DNA from: Candidatus Poribacteria bacterium
GTDB taxonomy: Bacteria > Poribacteria > WGA-4E > WGA-3G
NCBI GenBank assembly: GCA_965197475.1
Contig: CBDANF010000002.1
Location: 704,001 to 768,000, forward strand
Reading direction: 5' to 3'
Length of the DNA: 64,000 nt
The position numbers and the translations under genes were made by a program. Below are positions 54,935 through 63,999 of this stretch, in pieces; position 1 is the first letter of the stretch, and every line of letters starts with the position of its first letter. The notes beneath the pieces are model-generated. The model was not told the origin of the DNA. It saw only the letters and a program-made list of their open reading frames with translations, and searched no databases.

Positions 54935-55935
54935 GAAGTCATATTGAGTAAAACATAAGGATGTGGTAGAATAGGGAAAGAAAAGGATATAGTTTATGTC
55001 CCTTTTTTCACTGGACATCCACATTTACTTTATGAAAGGTTTTATTATGGCAGACGAAACTCAAAAGGTTCCGAGATACAAAGGTATTCCCAAGCAGGTT
55101 TCCCGCAAGGATTTTAATCGTTATATCTTGCCCCATCTAAAGAAACGAGTGAAAGGGCCAAAGCCCAAACTCTCCTTCTATAAGATATTCAACTATATCC
55201 TCTATGTTTTGCATACTGGCATTCAATGGGAGCGGCTCCGCACACGGCGTTCTGAACTCCATTGGTCTAATGTCTATAAATGGCATAATAGATGGTCAAA
55301 AGACGGCTCTTATCAGAAACTTTTTGAAGCGTCTATCATACATCTGCTTGATACCGATCAACTTGACACCTCTCAACTTCATGGTGATGGGTCAAATACC
55401 GTCGTAAAAAAAGGGGCAATGGCATCGGTTATTCGGGACACAAACATCAGAAAGGTGAAAAAGAACTGACCATCACCGACAATCAAGGGTTCATCGTCAG
55501 TCCGATAACCACTAAACCGGTCAATCACCATGGGACAACGATTTTGCCCGAAGCATTCGCAGATTTTATCACCTTTACCCATCGCATTGGGATGGATCTC
55601 AGCGCATCTGCGCTAACGCTGGATTCCGGTTTTGATTCCAAAGAGAATCATAAGATTATCAAAGAACACGGACTTATCCCAGTGATCTATCCGAACCGAC
55701 GGAATGCCAAAGAACCTATTGTCATCGCTCGCAAGTTCCGGTGGTTTAGCAAAGATATGGACAAAAACCGATATAAAGTAGAGCGAACTTTCGGTTGGCA
55801 AGGGACTTATCGGAAACTCGCTCTTAGCTACGATAAACTTAAAGAAACCCGTTTAGGTTTTCGTTATTTAGCATATTCAATGATAAACTTTCGGGGGACT
55901 TTCAACGATGCTTAGCTCGTACTCGCTATGAGTTC
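54935..55935 (+). mobile_element. IS5-family IS; transposase 55047-55915 via a -1 frameshift at A7G4
   Basis: Imperfect TIRs GAAGTCATATTGAGTA / TACTCGCTATGAGTTC; 3-bp ACT on both flanks; LHTGIQW, HGDG, LDSGFD, RYKVERTF.W. Confidence 0.9.
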
Positions 55936-56023: not shown

Positions 56024-57046
56024 CTATTCCTTATCACCAATTGTTTTTGTGTCATCCTTAAATAACCTATTGGATAACTCATCAATCCGCATTTGCGCAA
56101 TTTGGTTATATGTTTCGTCCTTCTCAATCATTATCCATCTCCTGTTATGTTGCTCTGAAACGACTGCTGTCGTTCCAGCTCCTGAGAATGGGTCAAGGAT
56201 GAGATCGCCTTTATCTGTTCCTGCTAATATAATGCGATTGACGACTGCTACAGGTTTTTGAGAAGGATGTTTACCATGCTTGCGTTCCGATGGTTTGGTC
56301 AGCGGAATTTCCCACATGTTTCGCATCTGCTTACCATGGTTCATCGCCTTCATAGTTTCATAATTGAATGTCCAATTTTTGGCTTTCTTGCTTTCATTGT
56401 TGACAGCCCAAATGATAAATTCGGTAGACTCGGTAAACATTCGGCAGGTAATGTTAGGTTGCGCATTAGGTTTATACCAAACAATTTGAGAGATAATCCG
56501 CCTGTCAAAAAAGTTTTGAAGTATGAAACCAATTGTAAAGATGCAGTGAAAAGACCCAAAAATGAATAAATTTCCGTTCGTCTTCAGCACTCTCAAGACT
56601 TCTCGGATCCAATTAACCGTGAACTGGAAATAGTCGTCCTTTGAAAAAATATCCCACTGTTCCTGCATTGTGACATGGGAACTAAATGCCCAGCCCAATC
56701 CTTTCTTTTTCGACATATTAAACGGCGGATCAGTGGCACAACAATCAAAGACTCCATCAGGGAAAGTAGAAAGAATTTTTAAGCAGTCGCCTGATACAAT
56801 TTGATTAACAGGAAGGTTGTCGGTTGTTCCTCCTAAAAGTGTTGGTGAATATTCTATATTTTCAGAGGAAGGATCGTGAATTTCACTCTCCGCAATAGCG
56901 GGTGATATTTTTGTTTTTTTCAGTGGGTGAGTTCCTGTTGAAAGATACTCAATCAATTGTGCCTTCTTTAACGAAGAGTACCCTTTCAATCCGCGTTTTT
57001 TGAGTTCTTTTCTCAGCTCTATGTTTCGCATTTGATGGAAATTCAT
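56024..57046 (-). CDS. Beta-class N6/N4 DNA methyltransferase (DpnA-like) with N-terminal Rho_N/SAP-like domain
   Basis: TDPPFN before DPFSGAGTT; PNITCR.FT.STE.IIWA, GKQM..W, KHPSQKP; N-terminus ELRKELKKRGLKGYSSLKKAQLI. Confidence 0.9.
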   Translation of the reverse strand: MNFHQMRNIELRKELKKRGLKGYSSLKKAQLIEYLSTGTHPLKKTKISPAIAESEIHDPSSENIEYSPTLLGGTTDNLPVNQIVSGDCLKILSTFPDGVFDCCATDPPFNMSKKKGLGWAFSSHVTMQEQWDIFSKDDYFQFTVNWIREVLRVLKTNGNLFIFGSFHCIFTIGFILQNFFDRRIISQIVWYKPNAQPNITCRMFTESTEFIIWAVNNESKKAKNWTFNYETMKAMNHGKQMRNMWEIPLTKPSERKHGKHPSQKPVAVVNRIILAGTDKGDLILDPFSGAGTTAVVSEQHNRRWIMIEKDETYNQIAQMRIDELSNRLFKDDTKTIGDKE

Positions 57047-57306: not shown

Positions 57307-58332
57307 CTAAACTGATATTTGAACAACCTCTCCCGTTTCAATACTACGACTAATCGCCTCCAAAACGCGCATGTTCTGATACGCATCTTCAAGACTTGAG
57401 TGAGGTTGTGTGCCTGCTTGCAACGATTGTGCCCAATGCCGCATCTCTTCAAGATAACCCGGTCTGCCGATACCATGGTATGCAGTATTGAGATCCCACG
57501 TTTCTGCAGGCGTATCGGCATAGCCACCGCCACCGCCACTGCCAAGCCATGTCGGGGCACGGTAACGGCGCAACTTGCGTGTTTCAAACACCTGAATTGC
57601 CTGATTGTTCGTGCCTTTGATGAAAACCATCGCTTCCAAGACCGGACCGGTGCCAAGTGTCATCGTGCCGATGCCACCGTTTTCGTAACGTAGGTTCACG
57701 GACATTGAAACGGTGGCTGATGCAGAATCAATCTTGCCCATCGCAAAGACTTCACTGACCTGGCCCATAAAGAACCGCATGCAATCTGTAGGATGAATGA
57801 CTTGGTCAAGCATGAAGGGCCAAGCAAATGGTGATCCTGCCTGATTAAGCCGAGGACCTGGGGCAAGATAACGTGTATGGTATTGACACGTTGTTCCAAA
57901 ATCATCTTCATCAATCAACCTTTTGGCGATCTGATGCGCGGGCGCATGTCGCCACATTGTGCCGACCATACCCGTTTTGCCTGTTTCAACAGACGCATCA
58001 ACAAGCATCTTTGCACCTTCAGCGGTAGTCGCAGGTGGTTTTTCGGTATAGATATGATAACCCTGTTGCAGACATGCAATGCCTATATCGCGATGTAGTT
58101 TGTCCTCAGGTCTGCCTACTACTGCGACTGCGTAAAGGTCTTCATTTTTGAACATCTCATTGTAGTCGGTGTAGTGGCGTAGCGCGCCAAATCTCCGAGC
58201 GTTTGACTTCGCCTTTTCTTCCACGAGGTCACACGTAGCAACAAATTCAAACTCAGGGATCATCGGGATACACTGTTGCAACTGCGATGACATCCCGCCA
58301 CAACCTATAAAAGCTATTCTAATTTTGTCCAT
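57307..58332 (-). CDS. Gfo/Idh/MocA oxidoreductase
   Basis: IGCGG, TEKPP, HPTD. Confidence 0.9.
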   Translation of the reverse strand: MDKIRIAFIGCGGMSSQLQQCIPMIPEFEFVATCDLVEEKAKSNARRFGALRHYTDYNEMFKNEDLYAVAVVGRPEDKLHRDIGIACLQQGYHIYTEKPPATTAEGAKMLVDASVETGKTGMVGTMWRHAPAHQIAKRLIDEDDFGTTCQYHTRYLAPGPRLNQAGSPFAWPFMLDQVIHPTDCMRFFMGQVSEVFAMGKIDSASATVSMSVNLRYENGGIGTMTLGTGPVLEAMVFIKGTNNQAIQVFETRKLRRYRAPTWLGSGGGGGYADTPAETWDLNTAYHGIGRPGYLEEMRHWAQSLQAGTQPHSSLEDAYQNMRVLEAISRSIETGEVVQISV

Positions 58333-58379: not shown

Positions 58380-60983
58380 TTACAATTGTAATGCTTCATC
58401 AAGAGCTTCACGGAATTGATTTTGGTTTTTTTCCTGATAAAACGGCAAACCGATAATGCGATAGTTCTTATCCTCTATTATGAGTTCAGTTTTACGCTCG
58501 GTATCAATCTCCTTTAGAAAATCTTCTTTCCATCTGTCAAAGTCTTCAATGTGCTCACCTTTAGGTTCAATAAAAAGTTGATAACTCAGTGTTTCACCGT
58601 TTTCTTTGCCCAAAATGAGGACAAAGTCGGGTTGGAAGGCACGACCGTCAAAGAAGTTATAGATGTAAAAATGTCTCTCGTTACGGATGAGATAAACGTC
58701 ATCGTAAGTTTCTTGTAGTTCCGCAAGGTGTGTCTGTAGAAATTCCACGAATGCTTTTTCTTCACTGGTGCCGTAGAGTCCATTAAATGCATACCATTTT
58801 GCCGCTTTCGAGAGACGCTCGGCAAGGTGATTCTCATCAGCACGGGTGCTTTTAGCATTGAATTTCAGGATTTTGTTATCAAAAATAGTGTGGATTTGTT
58901 CCCTATAAAAGTGTTTTGTGCCTTCGTGTTCGGTAATTTGTTCACGTAGTTCGGATTCAATTTTTTCTAAAAGATCACAACATGCCCTGAGCTTTTCTGC
59001 TGGATTATCTTCTAAATGAGAACGATCACCCTTGAATTTGATTGACAAGCCTCCCAAAAAGTTATCCGAAGTCCTAAATTCCTGCATGGATTTCAAATGC
59101 GGAAAATATCGCTTTAGAGATGCAAACTTGAAAAACGGATTACGCGCAATAGCCGTTTGGACAATATTCTGTTCAATATCAGTTATCGTTATGTCCCGAC
59201 TATCTTTGTTCTGCGTGGTATAGGTTCGGTCATCCTCTGTCATACCCGTTACGTCGCCAGATCCTTCATAGACGGTATGCTCATGCCATTTCTTTTGGAC
59301 ACTTAGCGACTTTAAGTCTTCAAAAGATTTGACGTCTTTATAGTCTCTCGGTGCCTGTTTATTTACCCATATAACACCGTATTTGTATAAATCGGTTTCC
59401 TTGAATTCTTTTTTTAGCTTCAGTTTGCGAGTTACAACCTGTTCGTCTATTAGACCTTCCTGAATCAATGCTTTTTTGATCTCGGAGATATAGGGCAAAT
59501 CGTTAATGCTGTGATAATGAAATTCTTCCAGTACGCGGAGTTCATGCTCCATGTCTTCATCAAATTTGCGGGTGTACTTATCTTCATGTTCCGGCGGCAG
59601 ACTAAAAGGATAATAACGGGCTCCGCGTCCAATAAGTTGTGCCTCAGCAATTGTGGTTTTTCCAATTTTGTTATGTCCTGTACTGCCGGTATCGTAACAG
59701 CGAACGATGTCAAATAGATTCAACACATCCCACCCCTCACTGAGCATCTGCACAGCGAAGATAGCACGGATAGGATTGTCTTTTTCTTCAAGCCTGTTTA
59801 CCCCCACCTGATACTTCTCTTTCTCTATTTTGGAGTTGACAGCGAGGCAGTATCTCTCATGGAAAGCCCTTTGTAGGCGGTGTGCTAACTGATCGGAGCT
59901 GATTTTACGTTTTTTAAAGAAGCGAAACGCTTGTTTAATAATCGGAACTTCAGACCGCCGAATCTTGTCAATATCTTTTCCTGTGAGTGCGTCAATAAGT
60001 TTATGAAAATCTACTTTGTTTTTCTCGGAATCTGGGATCGTTTTCGCCTTAAACAGAATAACCGGTTTCAGTTGGATTTTGTGTTTCGCTGCAACAGACT
60101 CCTTGTAATAACTGAGAATAAGTGCCTGTAAATTGCGATTCTTCAGACTGAAACTTGATCTCACTATTTCTATGTCTTTTGAATATTTGTCATTCCGAAA
60201 TTGGACTAAATCATAGCGGTAGATGATCTTATTCCTATACTTATCCGCTATTGCAGGCGTTTTGTCATCAAAAGTAGCGGTAAATTCCAGCAACAGATTA
60301 TCACTGTTTGCGTTAAATATATTTTCAACGGTGTTTTCCCATGTTGGTTTTCCTACCGGATTCGGATTTTCTCCCATTAAGTCCAATTGCAACTGCGCCC
60401 GCGTAGAGACATTCATGTGGTGTGCTTCATCAGACAAGAGAACAATTTTCTTTTTCTTAAAATCGTCAAAAGTTAAGGCGTTCTCTTTTTCTGTTGTCAA
60501 ATCGCTGTGTAACTTCTGAATTGTAGTGAATCGGATGTTAATGTGGTTCTCGTTGACCCCTTCAAAATTTTCCACCTCCGTCACCTTAACCTGATCACCT
60601 TTGTAGTAGATAGTATTATTGAAAAGGTATTTTGAAGATCCTGGGTTGAAGAAATTGTCTTTTGTTTTCTCAATGATATTGTCTGCATTAACGAAGAATA
60701 GGAAATTACGGTATCCGTGTTCATAGAGATAAAGAATCAAACCTGCCATAATAAGCGTCTTACCGCTGCCTGTTGCCATATTGAAAAGCAGATGCAAGGG
60801 ATTTCTCTTACCGGGAAAACCATTGTTTAAGCAGTGGATAAATCTTGCAAATGCCTCTATTTGATAGGGACGAAGTTCATAAGCAGGACTCAAATTTTGC
60901 GTAATGCTTTCCGGCATTTCAGGTTTGGGAACTCCGAACTCGAAAGCATTTGTAAGTCGTTCATATAGAAATTGTTCAGGCAT
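58380..60983 (-). CDS. res: Type III restriction enzyme Res subunit
   Basis: MATGSGKT, DEAHH, FTAT, QLIGRGARY, C-terminal PDF...IEPKG nuclease motif. Confidence 0.92.
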   Translation of the reverse strand: MPEQFLYERLTNAFEFGVPKPEMPESITQNLSPAYELRPYQIEAFARFIHCLNNGFPGKRNPLHLLFNMATGSGKTLIMAGLILYLYEHGYRNFLFFVNADNIIEKTKDNFFNPGSSKYLFNNTIYYKGDQVKVTEVENFEGVNENHINIRFTTIQKLHSDLTTEKENALTFDDFKKKKIVLLSDEAHHMNVSTRAQLQLDLMGENPNPVGKPTWENTVENIFNANSDNLLLEFTATFDDKTPAIADKYRNKIIYRYDLVQFRNDKYSKDIEIVRSSFSLKNRNLQALILSYYKESVAAKHKIQLKPVILFKAKTIPDSEKNKVDFHKLIDALTGKDIDKIRRSEVPIIKQAFRFFKKRKISSDQLAHRLQRAFHERYCLAVNSKIEKEKYQVGVNRLEEKDNPIRAIFAVQMLSEGWDVLNLFDIVRCYDTGSTGHNKIGKTTIAEAQLIGRGARYYPFSLPPEHEDKYTRKFDEDMEHELRVLEEFHYHSINDLPYISEIKKALIQEGLIDEQVVTRKLKLKKEFKETDLYKYGVIWVNKQAPRDYKDVKSFEDLKSLSVQKKWHEHTVYEGSGDVTGMTEDDRTYTTQNKDSRDITITDIEQNIVQTAIARNPFFKFASLKRYFPHLKSMQEFRTSDNFLGGLSIKFKGDRSHLEDNPAEKLRACCDLLEKIESELREQITEHEGTKHFYREQIHTIFDNKILKFNAKSTRADENHLAERLSKAAKWYAFNGLYGTSEEKAFVEFLQTHLAELQETYDDVYLIRNERHFYIYNFFDGRAFQPDFVLILGKENGETLSYQLFIEPKGEHIEDFDRWKEDFLKEIDTERKTELIIEDKNYRIIGLPFYQEKNQNQFREALDEALQL

Positions 60984-61006
60984 CGTTATCTCCTTCAAAA
61001 AACATC

Positions 61007-62272
61007 TTATTCAACACCTTCTTCCTCGCCAACAACAGAATCTGCATCCTCTATTTCCGAATTATTCTTTTGGTTTTCGTTAGGTGGGGTAGACAGATAA
61101 AAATAAATTTGATCAAGGATCAAAAGTGCCTGTAATGCCTTCTCTGCAGAATATCCCTTTTCTAATGCCTCACCATGACCAACGCTGTGACGCGATAAAT
61201 CGTCGGTGACATTTGCAAGGTCAAAGTTCTTAAAGAAACTATTTTCAAGATACATTAGAAATTCGTTGGGCAATAATAGTGAATGTTCATCATCAACGTT
61301 ACATTTTGCAACCTCTAAGAGATGTTCAAGCGGTTTCTTAATTTTGTATGCCCCTTCTTTGTGATCTGCACGATACAAAGAACGCATAATACCCTCAATT
61401 TCCGGATAGAGATTCTTAACGCAACTTATGTAGTCGCTTTTGGTTCCACCAAGGAATGCGTCAAGACCGGGTTTCAAAAGTTCACGTTTGTCCTGAAAAA
61501 AGGGATTTTCCCACCACTTGTCAGTAATTGTTTTTACGCGTTGTTCGTTGAAACTATCAAGCAGCGTTTTTACCTCATCATCGTAAGCAAATTTATCATT
61601 TTTATATGTTTCAAATAATGTTTTATACTCATTACCTAAAATTTCTACAAAAGGAAACCATCCATCCGCAACCATTTTCTTAAAAATAGGTTCTGATTCC
61701 AGACTTTGATAGACATATTGAAATGCTAAATATCTATAGAGTTGTCCTAACTGCGTTTGCATTTGGACAATATTGGATACCTCAAGTTCCACTTCTTCAA
61801 ATTCTGATGAACCAATCTCCTTTTGCACTAAATTAGGATTACGCACGAAGTTAAAATAGAGCCCGAATTTCCAACCTACTTTTAGGCAACAGATAACCTT
61901 ATCAGATTCTTGTATGTCTATGCCCGGAAACCTTAATTCAATAATATCTGCAATATCATTATCTGAAATCAGTTCATTTTCTTTTAGAGTCCGCTTGGAT
62001 CTACATTTTATCTCCATCGGAAAATCATTAAGATAAATATCTGCACTCAAGTCACGATGAATGAGTATCAGAAAGTTATAAATCGAATTGACACCTATTT
62101 TGTAGTCCGTGGGATAAAAAAAGAGTTTTGATATTTCCTCAATGTATTTGTAAAACATAGGCTGATCTGAAGTCAGACGAGAAACACTCAAAGCCCAAAA
62201 ATAGTGATCCTTAGGTACATTGCAAACCGTAAAACCAGTAATATCTGAAACGTTACCTACGTATAAACGCAT
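61007..62272 (-). CDS. Hypothetical protein with C-terminal HEPN-like RxxxxH motif
   Basis: 421 aa; AAGGAG RBS; LYPEIEGIMR...SRHSVGHG...ALQALLILDQI. Confidence 0.75.
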   Translation of the reverse strand: MRLYVGNVSDITGFTVCNVPKDHYFWALSVSRLTSDQPMFYKYIEEISKLFFYPTDYKIGVNSIYNFLILIHRDLSADIYLNDFPMEIKCRSKRTLKENELISDNDIADIIELRFPGIDIQESDKVICCLKVGWKFGLYFNFVRNPNLVQKEIGSSEFEEVELEVSNIVQMQTQLGQLYRYLAFQYVYQSLESEPIFKKMVADGWFPFVEILGNEYKTLFETYKNDKFAYDDEVKTLLDSFNEQRVKTITDKWWENPFFQDKRELLKPGLDAFLGGTKSDYISCVKNLYPEIEGIMRSLYRADHKEGAYKIKKPLEHLLEVAKCNVDDEHSLLLPNEFLMYLENSFFKNFDLANVTDDLSRHSVGHGEALEKGYSAEKALQALLILDQIYFYLSTPPNENQKNNSEIEDADSVVGEEEGVE

Positions 62273-62325
62273 GATATTTATTGAACTCCTTTCTTAATCT
62301 GATTTTAATTTCCGTGACTTATGTT

Positions 62326-63999
62326 CTAGACTTTTTTGTAAAATTCCCGATTCAGTTCTCTATCTTCCTCACTGACCACAAACGTCTCGTCCGCTATTTC
62401 AGAGAGGTGGACATACAATTGGTTCTTATCCAGCAGCTCTGCTAACAGTTGCTTCTGTTTCTCAACATCATTGATAGCGATAAAGTGTTCTTCTGCTTCC
62501 ATCGGTTCTTGAGGTTTGACATACCAATTCAGAACGGAATCTCTTGACATATCACGCCAAATACCTAAGAGTTCTTCACTTGATTCTGCTGATTGGATTC
62601 GTTCCATAAAAACTTCGTTGTAAGGCATTAGTTCGCATGAGACAAAATTTCCGCTCAGAAGACCTTCTTGTGCGATCACCTTCTCAAGCCGTTCCTTGCA
62701 AACTGTTATATGTTCCTCTAATTGTTCAATAAGTATAAACTGACGTTTACCCCCATCCTGTTTGTTCAGTTCTGATATGGCATGTCCTGTTGTGCCTGAA
62801 CCAGCGAAGAAATCAAGGATAATGTCTCCAGGATCCGTTGTAATTTTCACGATGTCTATGATTGTATGCAATGATTTTGGATATGAAAAAGATTTCTTCC
62901 CAAGTATTTTTTCTAAAAGTCTTGTTCCATGTTGTGTTGCGTTATATTTGTTGTCAGTCCAGGTAGTTTTCGGACGCTCGCCTTTGTAATCAGTTATCCT
63001 CCGCTTAAAAAAGATTTGGATGTGTCCATCTTTATGTTTTTTGGCAACAATTTCGTTATTATCTATTTTCTTTTGTAAAGTTGCAGGAGAGTTTGACCAA
63101 ACCCATTCTATACCGTTTTGTATTGGAAGGACATCATGGTAGTTTTCCTCCTCTGTCAAAAAAATCTGCTGCAAGTCTTTAGAAACATAAATCGAATAAA
63201 ATTGCTTGGGTCTGTCCTCTCGCCGCGCGTTTCTCGTTTCACCCGTTCGCATTAAATTTTCTAACTTGTATCGTGAAATTTCATCTTTTTTATTGTAAGT
63301 TTTCTCTGTTTCTTCGGACATCTCAAAAAAGTTTATCTTTGCAAGTTCCTTATTTTTGGCATAAACCACCATGAATTCGTTTGTTGTCGCAAAAAAATTG
63401 TTATTTGTCTTGCCTGCCGGATGATGAACGATAGTCAAAACCGAAATACGGTTCTCTCTCCCAAAAACTTCATCGGCTAAAGTTCCCAAGTATAAGAGCT
63501 CATAGTTATCTATGGAAATTGCAATAAACCCATCATCTCTCAAGAATTGCTTTGCTACATCCAACCTATTCTTCATAAAAGTGAGCCAACTTGAATGATT
63601 GAAAGTATTGTTATAGGTGAAAATGTTTGCCTCTCCACCTGTATTATACGGTGGATCAATATAAATCAGTTTGACCTGCCCGCGGAACTGCTGTTTGAGG
63701 GTGTGGAGTGCAATGAGGTTGTTACCTTTGATGATAAGGTTCTCACGAATAACACCGTTCTCATCGCGTTCAATTTCTGTTACGTCCTGTTCACCGTTAG
63801 CAGTATGGCGTTTCCAGTTGGTAAGCACCTTTGGATCAAACATTCGATTGATTTCATCTTGTGCAAGGATTTCATTGAAGAAAATCTCTTTGCGTTTTTC
63901 TTCTTCTTTTGTCTGTCCGCCTTCAAGCACGCAATCTTTGTAGGGCCAAACGAGTGCAACTTCGTCTCGTTCAGGGAGAAATTTATTGCCAATGTTCAA
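62326..63999 (-). CDS. mod: Type III R-M Mod subunit (m6A methyltransferase), 5' truncated by window edge
   Basis: IIKGNNL, LIYIDPPYNTG, HSSWLTFM, FSYPKS, DFFAGSGTTGHA. Confidence 0.92.
   Translation of the reverse strand: MNIGNKFLPERDEVALVWPYKDCVLEGGQTKEEEKRKEIFFNEILAQDEINRMFDPKVLTNWKRHTANGEQDVTEIERDENGVIRENLIIKGNNLIALHTLKQQFRGQVKLIYIDPPYNTGGEANIFTYNNTFNHSSWLTFMKNRLDVAKQFLRDDGFIAISIDNYELLYLGTLADEVFGRENRISVLTIVHHPAGKTNNNFFATTNEFMVVYAKNKELAKINFFEMSEETEKTYNKKDEISRYKLENLMRTGETRNARREDRPKQFYSIYVSKDLQQIFLTEEENYHDVLPIQNGIEWVWSNSPATLQKKIDNNEIVAKKHKDGHIQIFFKRRITDYKGERPKTTWTDNKYNATQHGTRLLEKILGKKSFSYPKSLHTIIDIVKITTDPGDIILDFFAGSGTTGHAISELNKQDGGKRQFILIEQLEEHITVCKERLEKVIAQEGLLSGNFVSCELMPYNEVFMERIQSAESSEELLGIWRDMSRDSVLNWYVKPQEPMEAEEHFIAINDVEKQKQLLAELLDKNQLYVHLSEIADETFVVSEEDRELNREFYKKV

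Follow-up and report, generated by a model that had tools for sequence, protein, structure and literature searches.

HEPN ribonuclease (RNase) genes in restriction-modification (R-M) operons are a known theme, so such an arrangement alone is unsurprising to specialists. PrrC (EcoprrI) is a HEPN RNase gene embedded in a type I R-M operon, and RloC is under R-M-independent control by its own N-terminal domain (NTD). In Csm6/Csx1 (CARF-HEPN), a dimeric N-terminal sensor is followed by a C-terminal HEPN RNase. Passages of Anantharaman et al. (2013, PMC3710099) describe AbiJ-NTD/HEPN, MAE_18760 and HEPN/Toprim-NTD1, in which an unnamed alpha+beta NTD stands before a HEPN domain with an intact Rx4-6H motif; the NTD is also found there on a TOPRIM-type domain, some copies lie in R-M operons, and a sensor joined to a suicide RNase is proposed. 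Here we report on a 421-amino-acid (aa) open reading frame (ORF) of a likewise unnamed NTD-HEPN family, which lies between mod and res in a type III R-M operon at the edge of a 64,000-nt stretch from Candidatus Poribacteria bacterium (GenBank assembly GCA_965197475.1, contig CBDANF010000002.1, positions 704,001 to 768,000), called the window below. We read the family as probably a stand-alone abortive-infection RNase with its own sensor, riding a cargo slot of poribacterial type III operons.

By sequence comparison the family is real and conserved, and no named family can be assigned to it. It has 626 members in a set clustered at 90% and 824 in one clustered at 50%, from many bacterial phyla and archaea; a search of 50,697 phage records gave no match. 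The 421-aa ORF matched no family in Pfam, PADLOC, NCBIfam or PHROG; PADLOC-DB 2.0 (2023 library) gave 0 families at E up to 1, and a PDB sequence search with alignment A1 (138 rows, identity as low as 25%) gave three matches, every one with E above 0.3. A group of several hundred bacterial and archaeal proteins is thus nameless in four profile libraries, and its NTD has no solved relative. We found no description of it in the literature on HEPN domains, R-M guards, embedded genes or Poribacteria defence, where preprint supplements may list it; the main text of a modularity paper (bioRxiv 2025.09.30.679545) is without HEPN or TOPRIM, and its supplements may likewise list the family.

The family may, on sequence, be separate from the AbiJ-NTD/HEPN type: no Pfam NTD model of those families, such models presumably being in the Pfam copy used, matched any of 35 (A2) or 117 (A4) members. 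The only HEPN matches in the members scanned were one to RiboL-PSP-HEPN (E 0.003) and one to ApeA-HEPN (E 0.011), both below the cut-off. The nearest named cluster in a language-model search was the C6orf70/DUF4209 HEPN family (score 0.82; DUF4209 on 19% of members), which part of PMC3710099 lists in R-M-related operons. This is a lead only: the N-terminal domain there is another one, and DUF4209 was matched by 0 of 35 members (A2) and, among the best 25 of 30 families listed, by 0 of 117 (A4), none of those families having more than three members. Csm6/Csx1 differs in that the NTD of the 421-aa ORF gave no CARF/Rossmann match. That the ORF is neither PrrC nor RloC, as a preliminary description made from the DNA letters alone had held, agrees with what was found: it has no Walker A or LSGG pattern, whereas PrrC and RloC have an ABC-ATPase, and its operon is of type III and its family mostly without R-M, whereas PrrC goes with type I; nothing in the analysis pointed to tRNA-Lys as its target. 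Its working mode may still be like that of AbiJ-type or RloC-type effectors. The embedded defence genes of Payne et al. (bioRxiv 2024.01.29.577857), for example HEC-08 (DUF3644 HEPN), likewise show a single HEPN gene in the same orientation nested in a larger system, in a shared slot; in the part of that preprint concerned, type I R-M is a host system along with Hma, BREX and DISARM, and type III is not covered.

The AlphaFold2 model of the 421-aa protein (predicted local distance difference test (pLDDT) 92, predicted template modelling score 0.88) has a beta-rich NTD (about residues 1-186), a helical linker with the motif DGWFPF, the WF of which is invariant, and a C-terminal domain that is again helical; from about residue 400 there follows a tail of low confidence. 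This is the layout that had been proposed from the strings GWKFGLYFNF, EIEGIMR and RHSVGH (361-366), all present in the sequence, with HEPN suggested for the C-terminal part. In an exhaustive structural alignment, residues 255-396 fit more than 10 solved HEPN domains with Z 5.1-6.8 and root mean square deviation (rmsd) 2.8-4.3 A over 109-126 residues. The best of these were HI0074 (1jog; Z 6.8, rmsd 2.8, 110 aligned residues), 1wwp (Z 6.8, rmsd 3.1, 109 aligned), 2hsb (Z 6.8, rmsd 3.6, 117 aligned) and the HEPN toxin 7ae2 (Z 6.7, rmsd 3.6, 120 aligned), followed by AF0298, HEPN-MNT toxins, sacsin HEPN (Z 6.6), AbiA (6.2) and Csm6 (5.8), with AbiV and RnlA lower; HEPN-type entries dominate the top of the match list. 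Because the HEPN matches are consistent and the motif is present, we assign residues 255-396 to HEPN despite moderate Z values, that is, the C-terminal domain is predicted at moderate scores to have a HEPN-like fold. The conservation of RxxxxH, on which the earlier proposal depended, is high (R361 in 134/138 rows of A1, H366 in 136/138, and the upstream E293 in 128/138, with D in 7), and as judged from this alignment the Rx4H of the 421-aa ORF is beyond chance occurrence. The core of the gene is under purifying selection (dN/dS 0.13-0.29, 14 pairs). Fusions to a helix-turn-helix (HTH) domain were seen at L027 (HTH_17) and in P0255 (CapH-like HTH).

Folded separately, the NTD (about 186 aa, beta-rich) has a pLDDT of 91. 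Compared with 48,161 solved chains its best Z was 4.3 (roadblock/longin/profilin-like sheets, rmsd 4-6 A), which is no assignment and is not proof of a new fold. Foldseek against the PDB gave nothing at E 0.001, comparison with named clusters in an atlas search gave no usable match, and a search restricted to 89-329 aa gave 56 matches, all unnamed or 'hypothetical'. Against predicted viral structures there was one match, A0A8S5NQ38, an uncharacterised 136-aa Siphoviridae protein (Foldseek E 7.4e-5, 21% identity), which could be a captured NTD fragment or a phage decoy of the sensor. The NTD is also found on another kind of effector, in two actinomycetes: in Phytohabitans L069 (7980-9179) it is recognised with an hhalign probability of 99.9 and precedes a TOPRIM-type region, the protein matching the C-terminal part of PADLOC RT-Toprim retron models over its residues 169-392 (E 1e-15), and Krasilnikovia L068 (7086-8852) has DUF4062, the NTD and a shorter, similar TOPRIM-type region. 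Fusion of the NTD to HEPN or to a TOPRIM-type domain fits a swappable sensor module; one NTD common to HEPN and TOPRIM effectors is a pattern that passages of PMC3710099 describe for Abi-like sensor domains.

A two-copy model of the protein scored 0.57 (best control 0.00), its runs agreeing in at least 92% of contacts with pLDDT of at least 82; the mark that we used for a homodimer was reached by 20 of 30 solved pairs and by 1 of 23 single chains. The modelled interface includes S35, F40, W134, K135 and F136, invariant or near-invariant and the most conserved residues of the NTD. An NTD-mediated homodimer is thus predicted by the model.

The place of the gene in the operon carries a scar. We built a DNA profile (nhmmer) from ten mod 3' ends and scanned 976,519 bases with it. 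A second, degenerate copy of the mod 3' end follows in the window (E 4.7e-8; the best of three shuffled sets had E 0.096), at the same place as in L001-L004 and L011 (loci of the family are numbered with an L). In L001 (E 6.5e-25), L010 (E 2.5e-19 and 0.012) and L013 extra copies flank other cargo on one side or the other, and outside the Poribacteria clade described below the scan gave zero matches. In the window the second copy encodes the last ~18 codons of the ORF, the low-confidence acidic tail, and the similarity resumes beyond the stop codon after a 2-nt gap and runs into the spacer. At the protein level the tail resembles the Mod C-terminus. We considered that it might be a protein mimic of that C-terminus, docking on Res, and rejected this: with similarity continuing past the stop, and with 16 of 32 close homologues (the closest ones that could be read at the C-terminus) being without the Mod-like tail, it is better taken as an insertion scar than as a docking peptide. 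Mod's conserved aromatic residues are also lost from the tail, for which dN/dS came out at 0.2-4, each pair offering only about 50 sites.

Elsewhere the mod-res interval holds DUF3800, a Dsr1-like protein, DUF4268 or an IrrE/DUF4411 pair. Since the same repeat surrounds other defence cassettes, we regard the interval as a repeat-bounded cassette slot, the formation of which resembles, in its sequences, insertion with long target duplication. Passages of Furuta et al. 2010 (PMC2853133) report insertions that need no integrase and are accompanied by a direct repeat, tens to hundreds of bases long; what is inserted in that work is the R-M genes, whereas in Poribacteria it would be mod's own conserved 3' end that was duplicated as the target, reused for different cargo. 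The slot also holds an unnamed pair of a 208/220-aa and a 986-aa protein (L001 10379-13937, L010 9464-13058, L008 9219-12845) with no Pfam or PADLOC match; a 1208-aa relative of the 986-aa protein matches Dsr1 weakly, and the pair is a candidate defence system. In L008 (1505-7934) there are tandem mod genes around a TPR gene, the second mod being split into 553- and 94-aa frames.

A scan of species-representative genomes gave 70 loci, from which L070 (a 36-aa match) was dropped and L068 and L069 (NTD only) were set apart, leaving 67. In a quick maximum-likelihood tree of 65 rows, from which L046, L048 and L055 were also left out, 14 loci and the window form one clade (support 100), and 13 of the 14 are named Poribacteria. 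Full-length mod and/or res adjoins the gene at nine of these 14, seven in the order mod-gene-res and two in the order res-mod-gene. L005, L007 and L014 have no mod or res alongside, their neighbours being an HNH gene, PDC-S31 and an Hma system, and L013 has a mod-end remnant and a truncated gene without the catalytic Arg. Type III genes stand beside 10 of the 67 loci overall, nine of them in this one clade, and outside it beside 1 of 53, Atribacter L034 (608-5734), where an unrelated type III mod-res is followed by two different HEPN genes in tandem, the family member and ApeA. By these counts the type III link arose essentially once, with a single independent case besides. Any R-M within two or three genes was found at 5 of the 53, the other four being of type I, II, IIG or DpnI.

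The proposed survey of neighbourhoods for defence genes came out divided. R-M is rare outside Poribacteria, as just said, and there is a modest bias towards defence genes in general: an R-M, abortive-infection (Abi), toxin-antitoxin, DarTG, TIR, PIN or HEPN gene lies within two or three genes at 12 of the 53 loci, against 3 of 40 for genes more than 4.5 kb away (p 0.04), and counted by gene the figures are 17/214 near and 3/121 beyond 4.5 kb (one-sided Fisher p 0.03; 0.07 counting a NYN gene), all with neighbour classes assigned by hand. Homologues occur on eight plasmid records; of three such loci that we opened, the first has Shedu and Swt1-HEPN genes around it, the second is close to AbiEii and the third close to lexA, with R-M annotation in none. 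The neighbours scanned showed no CRISPR linkage. The family leans modestly to defence and mobile contexts. Stages of turnover can be seen at one site, before glyQS: an MNT-HEPN toxin-antitoxin pair; a res-mod-HEPN gene arrangement (L010, L056); the same with mod split by an insertion sequence (IS) (L056); and loss of res and mod with an IS3 element present and the HEPN gene broken (L013).

From known HEPN biology we infer, by analogy, RNase activity, a composite active site and abortive infection. The protein would be a self-contained single-gene effector made of an N-terminal sensor and dimerisation domain, a helical linker and a HEPN endoribonuclease. At rest a dimer would probably be held through the NTDs with the RNase off; a phage-derived cue at the NTD would let two HEPN domains assemble a shared Rx4H site, and the activated pair would cut RNA (host tRNA, rRNA or mRNA, or else RNA of the phage), so that translation stops and the infection is aborted. 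That the NTD senses a phage cue, and which RNA is the target, are guesses. In one Poribacteria lineage the gene would have been inserted straight behind mod, duplicating the mod 3' end, and would afterwards have travelled with type III R-M operons and been transcribed together with them, adding a second layer of defence that does not require R-M.

A more far-reaching version, which we offer tentatively and think rather unlikely, would make the NTD a phage-sensing fold of a kind not described before. Through its conserved two-fold interface it would recognise a protein of the phage or a small signal and turn on one or another nuclease (HEPN RNase or TOPRIM), these being interchangeable, with the Poribacteria mod 3' end as a reusable recombination anchor that builds integrase-free defence-cassette arrays in type III operons, the effector backing up restriction. 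If the NTD is a phage sensor, it would be a new trigger-detection module in a single-gene system compact enough for easy testing. The mod-3'-end repeat offers a simple rule for mining candidate defence genes, for example the 208/220-aa and 986-aa pair or the Dsr1-like protein.

The preliminary description had seen in the gene a PrrC-style guard of the type III system, that is, a HEPN protein held inactive by Mod or Res and freed when a phage anti-restriction protein blocks the enzyme. Parts of the literature make this attractive: type III systems are targets of Ocr (bioRxiv 2023.04.06.535777), and HEPN-R-M guarding has been proposed for at least 16 clades (PMC3710099). The gene stands directly behind mod in the window as well as at the nine clade loci, the link to type III arose independently in Atribacter, four more loci have R-M of other types, and in L013 the loss of mod and res coincides with truncation of the gene and a change of its catalytic Arg. 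However, true guards are tightly linked: in the passages concerned, PrrC is embedded almost exclusively in type I R-M (bioRxiv 2024.01.29.577857) and ronA is linked to hsdMS in every case (bioRxiv 2023.04.06.535777). The near-obligate R-M linkage expected of a PrrC-like guard is not found in our family, with no R-M neighbours at 48 of the 53 loci that lie outside the clade. In L011 only the two ends of mod and the first 87 codons of res are left, and in L056 an IS5-type transposase interrupts mod; the gene is intact in both. Within the core group HEPN alleles do not track Res: the window and L004 share 88% identity in Res and 70% in HEPN, the window and L006 59% and 77%, and L003 and L008 84% and 63%, so that, judged by these sequences, HEPN alleles move between different Res proteins. 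Other cassettes share the slot, half of the closest homologues lack the Mod-like tail, and longer fused forms of the family numbered 0 among 4,598 candidates, which is weak evidence. Being embedded in R-M does not by itself imply guarding R-M, and we think a PrrC-like guard improbable; the gene looks like a free-standing passenger in a swappable slot rather than a dedicated guard of the restriction enzyme.

It is also improbable, in our estimate, that the protein is an RNase responding to stress or DNA damage (by RloC-like logic, or in RNA quality control), whose primary role is not against phage and which sits in R-M operons by hitch-hiking. Most copies outside Poribacteria are solo among housekeeping genes, some have HTH fusions and one plasmid copy is near lexA; but the family occurs patchily in many phyla and keeps no neighbour constant outside Poribacteria, which is a trait of conflict systems, and the plasmid and prophage contexts, the swapping of the NTD onto a nuclease-type domain and the repeated landing beside defence genes point the same way. 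Least likely of all is a non-catalytic or selfish passenger, either a HEPN-fold binder of RNA or nucleotides or an addiction-type toxin, kept by linkage and with no defence role: the copies at L013, L038, L046, L048 and L055 are broken or motif-less and the activity of the family is argued by analogy, but R and H are kept in 97-99% of 138 diverse homologues, the gene is under purifying selection and no recurrent antitoxin neighbour was found among the family loci.

Several points weigh against our own reading of a stand-alone abortive-infection RNase. The confident dimer contacts are between NTDs, with no confident HEPN-HEPN contact in the model. Foldseek against the PDB at E 0.001 found no match for the full model; by the exhaustive alignment tool's own account Z 6-7 is common for helical bundles, and its first row was Roquin (Z 7.0). 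RNase activity and phage protection are extended to this protein from its relatives in fold. At 41 of the 53 non-Poribacteria loci none of the two or three closest genes is a recognised defence gene, many of these copies lying among housekeeping genes; the neighbour classes cover two or three genes on each side, and many contigs run out soon after. The pairwise dN/dS for L011 mostly reflects the period before R-M was lost. HEPN and Res identities correlate across the nine type III loci (Spearman 0.62, from pairs that are not independent), and independence from R-M was judged in cis, which allows control in trans by R-M elsewhere in the genomes of L007, L011, L014 and L056. Because of this correlation, the joint loss in L013 and the cis scope, guarding could be a lineage-specific adaptation in Poribacteria.

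The operon itself is as first described. Mod, of the beta class, shows DPPY and FxGxG, and Res, an SF2 helicase-nuclease, shows Walker A, DEAH and PD..ExK; with the PADLOC matches (Table 1), two such proteins in one operon and with catalytic motifs kept make a type III R-M system. The three genes are co-oriented on the minus strand with gaps of 53 and then 23 bp, and a Shine-Dalgarno-like site precedes both the ORF and res; the AGGAG of the ORF is retained in most of the closest loci. The mechanical ORF of res begins upstream of its ATG, at TTG 60998. The middle gene is AT-richer than a housekeeping neighbour, as had been noticed (GC 0.359, against 0.492 for gfo and 0.436 for the window); with mod at 0.390 and res at 0.396, the entire operon is AT-rich and the 421-aa ORF the most so of the three. 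Scans for promoters (8 sites against 16.7 in shuffles) and terminators (2 against 6.1) were uninformative. The window and L004 can be aligned over 5.5 kb, at 84.5%, and the closest named relatives of the 421-aa ORF are all Candidatus Poribacteria.

Table 1. Features of the type III operon at the window edge (window coordinates)
Feature	Position	Strand	Remark
mod, type III DNA methyltransferase	62326..63999	-	5' end beyond window edge; PADLOC MTase_III E 4e-121
mod conserved 3' end, first copy of the cassette-bounding direct repeat	62328..62429	-	
AGGAG, Shine-Dalgarno-like, of the 421-aa ORF	62286..62290	-	13 nt before ORF start; read from sequence
421-aa NTD-HEPN protein, unnamed family	61007..62272	-	ATG start
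N-terminal alpha/beta domain (NTD), about residues 1-186	61715..62272	-	no solved-fold match; predicted homodimer interface; putative sensor
HEPN domain (predicted), residues 255-396	61085..61510	-	structural alignment Z 5.8-6.8 to many solved HEPN domains
E293 codon, within HEPN domain	61394-61396	-	
R361-H362-x-x-x-H366, predicted RNase catalytic motif	61175..61192	-	conservation in homologues
Degenerate second copy of mod 3' end	60997..61061	-	nhmmer E 4.7e-8
AAGGAG, Shine-Dalgarno-like, of res	60990..60995	-	6 nt before res; read from sequence
res, type III restriction helicase-nuclease	58380..60983	-	from ATG; PADLOC REase_III E 4e-144

On its downstream side res is followed by a GFO oxidoreductase and, after that, by an orphan DNA methyltransferase (window 56024-57046 (-) and 57307-58332 (-); L004 11966-14252). 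In the window the orphan is a CcrM-like N6/N4 methyltransferase with a SAP/Rho-N-like N-terminus, and at the same position L004 has an unrelated D12 (Dam-like) methyltransferase; unrelated enzymes at one position suggest a second exchangeable slot. A transposase of the IS4/IS5 family lies at 54996-55915 (+), 2.5 kb downstream of res; it occupies two frames and has DUF4096 and DDE domains.

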